This document shows positions 37,002 through 38,701 of a DNA stretch of 64,000 nucleotides, piece by piece (position 1 is the first letter of the stretch; each line of letters begins with the position of its first letter). The stretch is from sequence record NC_014662.1. One strand, 5' to 3'. The stretch is from Enterobacter phage CC31. Under the pieces are notes generated by a model. That model did no database searches, was not told where the DNA came from, and worked only from the letters and a program-made list of their open reading frames with translations. The translations under genes were made by a program, and so were the position numbers.

Positions 37002-37064
37002 AGTGTTCCTCCAGTGATTCTGGGGAAACTTTTCAGTTTCCCCATATATTACCATTAACAGCTG

Positions 37065-37137
37065 CTAGTGTACCTGGACTCGAACCAGGGAATCGTAGAA
37101 TCAAAATCTACTGCCTTACCAACTTGGCTATACCCCA
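37065..37137 (-). tRNA. tRNA-Gln (anticodon UUG)
   Basis: Minus strand TGGGGTATAGCCAAGTTGGTAAGGCA-GTAGA-TTTTGAT-TCTAC-...CCTGGTTCGAGTCCAGG; anticodon loop gives TTG; coordinates approximate. Confidence 0.7.
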
Positions 37138-37143
37138 ACTGTT

Positions 37144-37220
37144 TGGAGGCGGGTGATGGACTCGAACCATCGCGTAACGGGATATGAACCCGTCATTCTA
37201 CCAACTGAAGTTAACCCGCA
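37144..37220 (-). tRNA. tRNA with CAU anticodon (Met or lysidine-type Ile)
   Basis: Anticodon arm ACGGG-TTCATAT-CCCGT, T arm GATGGTTCGAGTCCATC, CCA encoded; pos 1:72 mismatch and irregular D arm lower confidence. Confidence 0.55.
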
Positions 37221-37340
37221 CTTATCCGGATTCCTGAAGTACAACGGCTGCTTTATGTAGAACTCACCTATTGTGAGGGAACAAAATCACTGGTCCTGGC
37301 ATTAATTATGGACCACCATCTTCAGGAACTGCCTCGTATT
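37221..37340 (-). ncRNA. structured spacer in tRNA cluster, candidate small stable RNA
   Basis: About 120 nt without ORF or tRNA; long-range complement ttcctgaagt/acttcaggaa and internal hairpin GGTCC...GGACC; T4 carries two small RNAs of unknown function in its tRNA cluster. Confidence 0.3.
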
Positions 37341-37416
37341 TGGCGGACCTAACGGGATTCGAACCCGTGACTCTCACGTGACAGGCGAGTATTTTCACCG
37401 CTGAAACTATAGGTCC
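37341..37416 (-). tRNA. tRNA-Asp (anticodon GUC)
   Basis: 76 nt with CCA; acceptor GGACCTA/TAGGTCC; anticodon arm CTCGC-CTGTCAC-GTGAG; T arm ACGGGTTCGAATCCCGT. Confidence 0.7.
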
Positions 37417-37658
37417 AAATTATCTTTCGTGATTATGTGAATCCCTCAGGTTTTCCGGAAAACCGAATAGGCGACAAAAGCTCTCATATACCCGTGCACA
37501 GATATAATCTTTGTTAACTAGTGTCTGAATCAGTATAATCCGAAAGATAACTTTCGGCGCCGTATTTAATTTGAGATATGTAGTTATCGTTGAGGGAACT
37601 CATATTCAGGGATTAACATGCCGACGACTTTGTCAGAACGTCTTCCAACTTCTATATT
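37417..37658 (-). ncRNA. structured spacer in tRNA cluster, candidate small stable RNA(s)
   Basis: About 240 nt without ORF or canonical T-loop; hairpins GGTTTTCC/GGAAAACC and CCGAAAG-N4-CTTTCGG. Confidence 0.3.
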
Positions 37659-37743
37659 TGGCGGGTCGTGCAGGTATCGAACCTGCCTAGTCATTTCTGA
37701 CACGGATTAACAGTCCGCCGCTTACCCTCTCAGCCAACGACCC
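37659..37743 (-). tRNA. tRNA-Asn-like (anticodon GUU) with unusually long variable arm
   Basis: 85 nt with CCA; perfect acceptor GGGTCGT/ACGACCC; anticodon arm GCGGA-CTGTTAA-TCCGT identical to the recalled E. coli tRNA-Asn arm; 15-nt variable region GTCAGAAATGACTAG. Confidence 0.6.
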
Positions 37744-37748
37744 AAATT

Positions 37749-37823
37749 TGGTTCTCCGTAAGAGAATTGAACTCTTCTTTCCGACGTGAAAGGCCGGCGT
37801 CCTAACCGATAGACGAACGGAGA
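37749..37823 (-). tRNA. tRNA-Glu (anticodon UUC)
   Basis: Acceptor TCTCCGT/ACGGAGA; TCGTCTA...GGAC D arm; anticodon arm CCGGC-CTTTCAC-GTCGG; T arm AAGAGTTCAATTCTCTT; CCA encoded. Confidence 0.75.
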
Positions 37824-37824
37824 T

Positions 37825-37902
37825 TGGTAGGACGTGAGGGAGTTGAACCCATCGACATTCCGATTAAAAGTCGGATGCTCTAACCAACTGAGCTAACGTC
37901 CT
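37825..37902 (-). tRNA. tRNA-Lys (anticodon UUU)
   Basis: Acceptor AGGACGT/ACGTCCT; D arm TAGCTCAGTTGGTTAGAGC; anticodon arm TCCGA-CTTTTAA-TCGGA; T stem pairs imperfectly in my reading. Confidence 0.6.
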
Positions 37903-37940
37903 GTAGATATTTATAATAACAAAAATATCTTTAAGCAAAT

Positions 37941-38016
37941 TGGTGGGAATAACTGGACTCGAACCAGTGACCTAACGATTATCGGTCGTTTGCTCTACCA
38001 ACTGAGCTATATTCCC
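37941..38016 (-). tRNA. tRNA-Ile (anticodon GAU)
   Basis: 76 nt: GGGAATATAGCTCAGTTGGTAGAGCA-AACGA-CCGATAA-TCGTT-AGGTC-ACTGGTTCGAGTCCAGT-TATTCCC-A-CCA. Confidence 0.7.
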
Positions 38017-38022
38017 TGAATT

Positions 38023-38110
38023 TGGTGGGGAGTGATGGAGTCGAACCACCCGAGTCGCAATGACAACAGATTTACAGTCTGCACCGCTACCTCTACGGAA
38101 TTAACTCCCC
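38023..38110 (-). tRNA. tRNA-Tyr (anticodon GUA), type II
   Basis: Acceptor GGGGAGT/ACTCCCC; anticodon arm GCAGA-CTGTAAA-TCTGT; long variable arm with GTC/GAC stem; T arm GGTGGTTCGACTCCATC; CCA encoded. Confidence 0.7.
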
Positions 38111-38115
38111 GAAAT

Positions 38116-38475
38116 TTATTTAAGAACTGTTGAGTTCATCGATTTAACCAAGAAAACTTGGTGTGGTGAACGAAGTGAACCTTCAATAGTGCGATGTTCT
38201 GGAAAATTGGTTGAAGTCTGAAAACCAGCTACACGGTAACCTTGCTCAGTCCATCCTAAAAGGATACCAACCATACAGCCAGAATATTTTCCGCTTTTAT
38301 CCAAAGCTACAATATCACCAGGAGCAATTTCATTACCCATTGAATCAGGCTTAATCCATTGTGGAGTAACCAGTTCTATAGGTATATTTATACCGCTTGA
38401 AAAGCTGTAATATTCGTCTGAACGTAAGCCCTGAATGCTTTTAAAGACTTTATGCCAAGTTTTACTGATGCTCAT
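38116..38475 (-). CDS. hypothetical protein
   Basis: 119 aa ORF immediately downstream (minus) of... upstream neighbour of tRNA cluster. Confidence 0.4.
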   Translation of the reverse strand: MSISKTWHKVFKSIQGLRSDEYYSFSSGINIPIELVTPQWIKPDSMGNEIAPGDIVALDKSGKYSGCMVGILLGWTEQGYRVAGFQTSTNFPEHRTIEGSLRSPHQVFLVKSMNSTVLK

Positions 38476-38701
38476 AATGTTCTCTCGCAGTGTTTTGGTG
38501 AATCAACGATAATTCATCGAAGATTGACTTCATTGCATTTTTCACAAAAATTTTTTCAGAAGGCTCCATCGACGTATTGTTGATGATTCTCGCCATTCGT
38601 TCTTTAAGCTTCTTTTTCCGATTCCGGACCGTCTCCTTGGAAGCGGTCCTCATGTGAGCAAGATTAGTCATCATGTTCCGTCGATAGATTAATAATAACA
38701 A
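38462..38701 (-). CDS. hypothetical basic protein
   Basis: 79 aa ORF. Confidence 0.35.
   Translation of the reverse strand: MLLLIYRRNMMTNLAHMRTASKETVRNRKKKLKERMARIINNTSMEPSEKIFVKNAMKSIFDELSLIHQNTAREHYEHQ

Follow-up and report, generated by a model that had tools for sequence, protein, structure and literature searches.

A long-armed tRNA-Asn and the trace of an 8.3-kb deletion in the tRNA gene cluster of Enterobacter phage CC31

A cluster of eight tRNA genes in phage CC31

Enterobacter phage CC31, a T4 relative with a genome of 165,540 bp and 8 tRNA genes, was published in 2010 (PMC2993671, Table 2). We analysed a stretch of 64,000 nucleotides (nt) from its sequence record NC_014662.1, referred to here as the window, with attention to its tRNA gene cluster and to one member of that cluster, a tRNA-Asn(GUU) with a long variable arm. 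The cluster occupies 37064-38110 and consists of eight tRNA genes, all on the minus strand, with the isotypes and anticodons Tyr-GUA, Ile-GAU, Lys-UUU, Glu-UUC, Asn-GUU, Asp-GUC, a CAU tRNA and Gln-UUG (Table 1). The eight-gene cluster itself is already on record and is ordinary; what is new is the origin of this set by deletion, a scarred tRNA-Gln at its border, two spacers predicted to encode structured RNAs, and the membership of the tRNA-Asn in a widespread long-armed class.

All eight genes score above the gathering score (29 bits) of the Rfam RF00005 covariance model, with 39.1-74 bits and window-wide E-values between 1e-4 and 2.6e-14. ARAGORN, run on the region as the original prediction had proposed, called seven of them with the same anticodons (Gln ttg, Met cat, Asp gtc, Asn gtt, Glu ttc, Lys ttt and Ile gat) and did not call the Tyr gene, even at a relaxed threshold. 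The isotypes and boundaries that had been read from the minus strand are thereby upheld by Rfam for eight of eight genes and by ARAGORN for seven. An encoded CCA, which had been claimed for most of the genes, is present in seven of the eight, the exception being Gln, whose 3′ end reads ...TACACTAG-CAGC. The refutation that the original prediction had foreseen, other isotypes or boundaries or a pseudogene score for the GUU and CAU species, did not materialise: neither Rfam nor ARAGORN rejects these two, and numerous records of related phages list them as tRNA-Asn and tRNA-Met. The weak members of the cluster are instead Tyr and Gln.

Our overall account is that a Karamvirus-type T4-like phage has its tRNA genes here, that part of the cluster was lost by deletion, that the GUU tRNA accepts asparagine and that the CAU tRNA is of initiator type; taken as a whole, we hold this account with considerable confidence.

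Table 1. Features of the CC31 tRNA gene region (positions in the window)
Feature	Position	Strand	Rfam RF00005 match	ARAGORN	Description
tRNA-Tyr(GUA)	38023-38110	-	38026-38110, 39.1 bits		88 nt with CCA
tRNA-Ile(GAU)	37941-38016	-	37944-38016, 74 bits	called	canonical, CCA encoded
tRNA-Lys(UUU)	37825-37902	-	37828-37902, 62.8 bits	called	78 nt
tRNA-Glu(UUC)	37749-37823	-	37752-37823, 55.2 bits	called	
tRNA-Asn(GUU)	37659-37743	-	37662-37743, 49.8 bits	called	85 nt
Variable-arm hairpin of tRNA-Asn	37690-37701	-			GTCA-GAAA-TGAC; 4 bp and GNRA tetraloop, then unpaired TAG
tRNA-Asp(GUC)	37341-37416	-	37344-37416, 59.9 bits	called	
Initiator-like tRNA(CAU)	37144-37220	-	37148-37219, 44.1 bits	called	
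tRNA-Gln(UUG)	37064-37137	-	37065-37137, 55.9 bits	called	
Deletion junction	37064-37074	+			GCTAGTGTACC; in relatives, two copies of an imperfect repeat 8,284 bp apart
Asn-Asp spacer	37417-37658	-			242 nt; predicted conserved structured RNA with a ~140-nt 3′ domain closed by a ~19-bp helix
Asp-CAU spacer	37221-37340	-			120 nt; predicted conserved multi-helix RNA with a 10-bp closing stem GTTCCTGAAG/CTTCAGGAAT
TATAAATA motif	37908-37915	-			within the 38-nt Ile-Lys spacer
GC-rich hairpin	37022-37043	-			GGGGAAACT-GAAA-AGTTTCCCC; just 3′ of the cluster, no T run; read from the sequence

An 8.3-kb deletion and a scarred tRNA-Gln

The Karamvirus relatives PG7, vB_ECC_CW742 (CW742) and Cronobacter phage Pet-CM3-4 are 90-95% identical to CC31 over 37064-38600, and this identity ends exactly at 37064, within the 3′ acceptor strand of tRNA-Gln. 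What lies to the left of this position in CC31 is found in CW742 at a distance of 8,284 bp, and there the segment in between holds 11 further tRNAs (His, Ser-UGA, Trp, Gly-UCC, Pro-UGG, Phe, an Ile2-like CAU, Cys, Arg-UCU, Leu-UAA and Thr-UGU), about 20 small open reading frames (ORFs) and one homing endonuclease. Imperfect direct repeats lie at the two borders (left GCTaGtGTACC, right GCTgGgGTACC), the right one inside tRNA-Gln. Additionally, a 77-amino-acid ORF of the relatives is reduced in CC31 to its last 20 nt, joined to tRNA-Gln, and because only this remnant is left, fused to the tRNA gene, the difference is read as a deletion here and not as an insertion in the relatives. Together, these comparisons show that recombination between the two short repeats cost this lineage an 8.3-kb segment. 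Two further differences were seen in CW742: its homing endonuclease gene sits between Ser and His, and an insertion of ~490 bp without annotated gene (L001 2344-2832) separates Lys from Ile, which in CC31 are only 38 nt apart.

The original prediction had contrasted the cluster with a T4 set of Arg, Ile(CAU), Thr, Ser, Pro, Gly, Leu and Gln. That set proved accurate (anticodons UCU, CAU, UGU, UGA, UGG, UCC, UAA and UUG), and it does differ from that of CC31. All seven T4-type anticodons other than that of Gln are found in the missing segment. The set is thus unlike that of T4 because the deletion removed the other 11 tRNAs, among them every T4-type one but Gln. Once ~19 tRNAs strong, the cluster now comprises its non-T4 half and, at the border, Gln.

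The border has left its mark on tRNA-Gln. Its 3′ acceptor strand is chimeric, with G2.U71 and G4xA69 in the stem and no encoded CCA, and the gene scores 55.9 bits with Rfam compared to 64.4 bits for the intact copy of PG7.

A tRNA-Asn with a long variable arm

The GUU tRNA was found as first described, with a perfect 7-bp acceptor stem, a length of 85 nt and a variable region of 15 nt, GTCAGAAATGACTAG. The D stem has 3 bp in the ARAGORN drawing. The GTT anticodon lies at 37709-37711 in the 7-nt loop CTGTTAA, and the 3′ end (...ACGACCC-G-CCA) provides the discriminator G73 followed by an encoded CCA. Bases 26-43, the anticodon arm, are the same as in E. coli tRNA-Asn, for which we used a reference sequence that 5,425 genomes contain with 100% identity. 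In its length and in two of its parts the molecule departs from the cellular type: E. coli tRNA-Asn is 76 nt long, and in place of a variable loop of 4-5 nt and a D stem of 4 bp there are 15 nt and 3 bp. A variable region of more than 10 nt that forms a helix is the mark of the long-arm class, yet the isotype is none of those of that class, leucine, serine, tyrosine or selenocysteine (Sec), and GUU is present in every member of the family.

Thirteen phage homologues were aligned for an analysis of covariation. GTT and G73 are invariant, 99% of cells are paired and 16 of the 24 pairs have compensatory double changes; the helix of the variable arm shows covariation in each of its four pairs, with 100% of its cells paired. 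For four of five measures of covariation none of 500 shuffles reached the observed value, and for the fifth (further pair types) two of 500 did. A covariance model built from 13 long-arm Asn genes was unspecific, with 366 matches that included every tRNA in the loci, and the covariation is taken from the separate 13-sequence alignment. It shows that the extra helix of tRNA-Asn is, to judge by its compensatory changes, under selection. GUU together with G73 is sufficient to transfer Asn identity to another tRNA (PMC9976931), and because this complete transferable set and the host anticodon arm are both kept, the GUU tRNA is most likely a true asparagine acceptor.

Distribution of long-armed tRNA-Asn and of other long-armed isotypes

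Homologues of the tRNA-Asn are not confined to close relatives of CC31. It matches 633 phage records, in 547 of which the match covers 80% or more of the query, and carriers include Karamvirus, in which the arm is identical among the relatives, many Klebsiella phages, Serratia phage CHI14 (Winklervirus), many T5-like phages (among them EscoHU1, SB9 and HildyBeyeler, with the long-arm form), Proteus phage PM135 and Escherichia phage ESCO5. Viral contigs and genomes were also scanned with ungapped patterns of the arm. In the unselected part of the viral-contig scan the long arm is present in 9 of the 113 Asn tRNAs that have this anticodon arm, and in the viral-contig and genome scans together 37 of 131 unique GTT tRNAs have a variable region of at least 10 nt. 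These long arms typically consist of a stem of up to 6 bp followed by ~3 unpaired bases, and the cap is commonly a GNRA tetraloop (GAAA, GTAA, GCAA or GGAA). Viral loci with a long tRNA-Asn are richer in tRNAs, with a median of 8 versus 3.

Cellular genomes present a different picture. The long-arm Asn pattern has 25 matches in bacterial and archaeal genomes, sampled at one per species for 185,579 species, and 10 of the 25 belong to arrays of 7-36 tRNAs, as in Micromonospora. A full-length homologue is absent from 5,426 E. coli genomes. The chromosomal arrays of Micromonospora and Verrucosispora (L143, L144, L147 and L163) pack 23-36 tRNA genes into 8 kb and each contain a long-armed tRNA-Asn of 89-90 nt. 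Some phages have a short-arm tRNA-Asn, as in T5 (78 nt) and the T-even phage RB14 (75 nt). The long arm of tRNA-Asn is therefore lineage-specific, and the long-armed tRNA-Asn is a widespread class, typical of phages and tRNA arrays and almost absent from bacterial chromosomes. The original prediction had called such an arm unexpected for tRNA-Asn; this stands against cellular tRNA-Asn and falls for phages, given the records, at least 547 of them, that have a homologue.

In textbook accounts only the tRNAs for Leu, Ser, Tyr and Sec have long variable arms. The tRNA described here, which combines the complete Asn identity elements with a long-arm body and is conserved, with compensatory changes, across hundreds of phages, is an exception to that rule. 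We found no description of a long-armed phage tRNA-Asn in the open-access literature, a search that may have missed older papers on T5-like phages.

Other isotypes that normally have short arms were also seen with long ones. In the counterpart of the deleted segment in CW742, an 85-nt tRNA-Cys(GCA) (L167 6314-6398) has a variable hairpin GGG-TAT-CCC and U73, so that this genus has two isotypes, Asn and Cys, with a long arm where a short one is normal. Among the viral loci analysed, 12 of 50 Ile tRNAs are long-armed Ile-UAU genes of 91-99 nt (L021, L032, L041, L088 and others), and single long-armed Thr, Trp, Gly, Glu, Pro and Lys genes occur, as does Cys, several of them capped by GNRA. Long arms on normally short-armed isotypes may be a more general phenomenon.

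The CAU, Tyr and Lys tRNAs

The CAU tRNA has the mismatch at 1:72 that was noted at the outset, here U1xC72, followed by G2-C71, C3-G70 and G4-C69 and by the discriminator U73. Three G-C pairs stand at the foot of its anticodon stem (29-31:39-41, ACGGG/CCCGT), and some homologues have only two. Divergent homologues keep U73 and a 1:72 mismatch (N1xC72 or U1xU72) while pairs 6 and 7 covary, and the acceptor stem matches that of a T5 tRNA annotated as ‘initiator tRNA fMet’, which also has U73. The 1-72 mismatch is a recognition element for the formyltransferase (PMC9976931). We infer that the CAU tRNA is initiator-like; its 1:72 mismatch is a conserved initiator-type feature and not a defect. 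A second CAU family, of the Ile2 type found in T4, is located in the deleted segment. The CAU tRNA has no match whatever in 5,426 E. coli genomes. It also has U38, where the host initiator has A38; VapC cleaves the host initiator beside this position.

In the Tyr tRNA the variable arm is long (GTC-ATTGC-GAC) and the stretch that leads from the acceptor stem to the D stem has three additional bases, and it is because of these three bases that ARAGORN misses the gene and that it is labelled ‘tRNA-Pseudo-GTA’ in phage Pet-CM3-4. Seven relatives, with flanks that differ by 5-10%, have this sequence at 100% identity, and it is 89% identical to tRNA-Tyr of T5, with which it has the odd D region in common. 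The T5 tRNA-Tyr can become an effective amber suppressor (T5 sequence record).

The T stem of the Lys tRNA is irregular, as the original prediction had it, and can be drawn with either a bulged U or an A-C mismatch; the sequence is identical in the relatives. It has G41 in place of the A41 of E. coli tRNA-Lys. The nuclease AriB of the defence system PARIS cuts at U36AAUC|A41 (PMC12409363), and the G41 of the phage tRNA falls at this cut site.

Spacer RNAs and flanking sequences

The two long spacers of the cluster, Asn-Asp and Asp-CAU, are predicted to encode conserved structured RNAs, and a comparison among relatives found no conserved ORF in either. The Asn-Asp spacer is predicted by RNAalifold to form 73 pairs, 18 of them with compensatory changes, and its folding z-score is -2.68, none of 200 shuffles folding as well. 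A segment CTTTCGG within it can pair upstream with GCCGAAAG, as a local hairpin, or downstream with CACGAAAG, in the long-range helix of ~19 bp. In one relative (L022) both possible partners have changed in step with it, which suggests that the spacer may adopt two alternative structures. The predicted fold of the Asp-CAU spacer has 28 pairs, of which 5 show compensatory changes, one being C-G to U-A in the closing stem, and its folding z-score is -1.85. The relatives’ version of this spacer has an extra hairpin of ~30-40 nt inserted in one arm.

T4 and T5 also have stable RNAs among their tRNAs. We considered the two spacers as homologues of T4 rnaD, but only 10-mers are shared (E=0.31) and the relationship is not established; no significant rnaC or rnaD homologue was detected in the window. 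A ~95-nt element of PG7 (L002 890-984) and Pet-CM3-4 (L003 996-1091), called ‘Met’ or ‘Phe’ by ARAGORN, is a homologue of T4 rnaC (E=8e-9). In the relatives this homologue is located in the segment that is missing from CC31.

The ORFs that flank the cluster are exact matches to CC31p140 and CC31p142. Judging by the annotation of relatives, T4 and RB14, the cluster sits downstream of the 57B, internal-protein and trna.x genes, on the same strand. The GC-rich hairpin just 3′ of the cluster was not called by the terminator scan. The motif TATAAATA, which we take to be the T4 late-promoter consensus, occurs in 9 copies in the window compared to 4.1 expected by chance; besides the copy between Ile and Lys, a second lies on the minus strand upstream of Tyr, at 38385-38392.

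Proposed role of the cluster

The eight tRNA genes and the two putative spacer RNAs are arranged head to tail on one strand. The cluster would be transcribed as multi-gene precursors, which RNase P and 3′ processing enzymes of the host would cut into mature tRNAs. These would add to the supply for AUN codons and for codons with A at the second position, and would probably sustain translation when host tRNAs are depleted or are cut by defence nucleases. Codon use fits such a supply role. The window has 39% GC, and 42.5% of the codons in its 70 long ORFs specify Lys, Glu, Asn, Asp, Tyr, Gln, Ile or Met; CAA exceeds CAG by 2:1. Published work has established that phage tRNAs can replace host tRNAs destroyed by PARIS, retrons or PrrC, and that they neutralise PARIS and Retron-Eco7.

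Several observations weigh against our overall account. A consensus scan found no sigma-70-type promoter directly upstream of the cluster on the minus strand. The tRNA-Gln may be inactive or impaired, because the acceptor stem, a strong determinant for glutaminyl-tRNA synthetase (PMC9976931), is where its G2.U71 and G4xA69 lie. The CAU tRNA is without the initiator features R11:Y24 and A73, having C-A or U-A at 11:24, depending on the register, and U73. The long arm of tRNA-Asn could interfere with asparaginyl-tRNA synthetase (AsnRS), and the functional data on phage tRNA-Asn come only from T5 and, as its tRNA-Asn is of the ordinary short type, do not carry over to the long-arm form.

Possible explanations for the long arm and for irregular genes

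There are two explanations for the long arm, one for its source and one for its purpose, neither of which we consider probable. One possible hypothesis, which we judge to lie on the unlikely side, is that the arm is a leftover: the gene would derive from a Tyr-GUA or Ser-GCU tRNA by a one-base change of the anticodon and a change of the discriminator, with the arm kept because its loss would disturb folding. GUA and GCU are indeed each one base from GUU, the Asn D arm is of the long-arm type, and the arm stem GUC/GAC of many members is the same as in the tRNA-Tyr of this phage and of T5. Much like the Asn case, a single step leads from Leu, Ser or Tyr anticodons to those of several further ‘wrong’ isotypes with long arms (Cys-GCA, Ile-UAU, Thr-UGU, Trp-CCA and Pro-UGG). 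However, the body of the tRNA-Asn, taken without the anticodon arm, has an identity of 0.70-0.76 to Tyr and Ser tRNAs, no closer than to some short-arm tRNAs, and by body-only similarity an origin from Tyr or Ser is not separable from one from other tRNAs. The arm also occurs on very different acceptor and D-arm backbones, some of them typical of bacterial tRNA-Asn, with the hairpin kept throughout and GNRA loops common.

A second hypothesis, which we regard as unlikely, concerns the purpose of the arm and is compatible with our account of the cluster. Here the arm would be a counter-defence device, a hairpin beside the anticodon stem that repels or titrates the tRNA-cutting nucleases of the host and leaves recognition by AsnRS intact. 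The anticodon arm is identical to that of the host, so that escape cannot stem from substitutions in it, as it does in T5 tRNAs. AriB cleaves tRNA-Asn at 40|41, near the exit of the arm, and needs contacts beyond the cut site (PMC12409363), and neutralisation of Retron-Eco7 requires the variable loop of a phage tRNA-Tyr. The occurrence of the long-arm form mainly in phages and mobile tRNA arrays, and of comparable GNRA-capped hairpins on other normally short-armed isotypes in phage arrays, would also be in keeping with such a device. Against this, the T5-like phage Bas34 in the PARIS study owns a tRNA-Asn, of either the short or the long type, and still required the T5 tRNA-Asn for rescue, and the tRNA-Asn of phage SP15 gave no rescue of infection from PrrC170. 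The rescue from PARIS toxicity by T5 tRNA-Asn (PMC12409363) is no evidence for the long-arm form, as the T5 tRNA-Asn is of the short type. Since immune systems that cut tRNAs are overcome by phage tRNAs, and since a tRNA-Tyr variable loop is implicated, the role of the arm is directly testable. By extension, there might exist an undescribed class of tRNAs in phages and mobile arrays (Asn, Cys, Ile-UAU and occasional Thr, Trp, Pro, Gly, Lys and Glu) on which a GNRA hairpin was selected as counter-defence, blocking or decoying immune tRNA nucleases with the identity elements untouched; this we put forward as speculation, and as doubtful.

That some members, namely Tyr, CAU and Asn, are decaying pseudogenes is very improbable. 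Tyr and CAU do have the lowest Rfam scores (39 and 44 bits) and an irregular connector and D stem, and the missed ARAGORN call and ‘Pseudo’ label of Tyr point the same way. Yet Tyr is unchanged in 7 relatives and has its odd D region in common with a working T5 tRNA-Tyr, the CAU mismatch is conserved amid covarying neighbour pairs, all Asn helices covary, and real damage is found in Gln only. Least credible is the reading in which the GUU tRNA is not an Asn acceptor at all and its long-arm body is charged by the seryl-, tyrosyl- or leucyl-tRNA synthetase, with AAC and AAU partly read as another amino acid: apart from the long-arm architecture it could appeal to the tRNA-Ser of E. coli, whose discriminator is also G73 and whose synthetase ignores the anticodon, but the 3-4 bp arm of the enterobacterial phages is short compared with tRNA-Ser arms, the A73 needed for Tyr and Leu identity is absent, the full transferable Asn set is kept across the family, and systematic misreading would be costly for a lytic phage whose proteome is 5.5% Asn.

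Comparison with known tRNA regions

Within Karamvirus, PG7, CW742 and Pet-CM3-4, with up to 19 tRNAs, have the eight genes of CC31 in the same order and with the same two spacers. They differ in what follows Gln, where they continue with 11 more tRNAs, ~20 small ORFs, the rnaC homologue and sometimes a homing endonuclease; CC31 is without those 8,284 bp and its Gln is scarred.

The T4 region has the same genomic position and strand, downstream of 57B, ipI and trna.2-4, and is likewise tightly packed, with structured non-tRNA RNAs interspersed. It comprises 8 tRNAs and the stable RNAs rnaC and rnaD. The sole member in common is tRNA-Gln(UUG), 77% identical between the two phages, and T4 has no equivalent of the Tyr, Lys, Glu, Asn, Asp, Ile-GAU and initiator-like tRNAs of CC31. 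With T5, CC31 has in common the tRNA-Tyr (89% identical), an initiator-type CAU tRNA with the same acceptor stem, 1:72 mismatch and U73, and the presence of stable RNAs among the tRNAs, whereas the T5 tRNA-Asn is of the short-arm type (78 nt). The closest parallels to the long-armed tRNA-Asn in architecture are the long-arm tRNAs of bacteria, especially tRNA-Tyr, which also combine a 3-bp D stem with a variable region of more than 10 nt folded as a short hairpin plus unpaired bases. Unlike these, the tRNA-Asn of CC31 has GUU and G73, and its arm is capped by a GNRA tetraloop.

For the deletion, the Serratia T4-like phages CHI14, X20 and CBH8 offer the nearest known case. They evade ToxIN abortive infection through deletions of 6.5-10 kb in the tRNA region between short direct repeats, at a cost of 4-13 tRNAs and with 5′ borders mostly within tRNA genes (PMC5449768), and these deletion phages carry a related tRNA cluster. 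The deletion of CC31 resembles theirs in size (8.3 kb), in the repeats at its borders, in a border that falls in a tRNA gene and in the loss of tRNAs together with small ORFs; it differs in that the loss is deduced from relatives and was not observed under selection. CC31, the type phage of its genus, thus has a natural counterpart of the ToxIN-escape deletions, and this is a ready comparison for asking what the lost tRNAs do.

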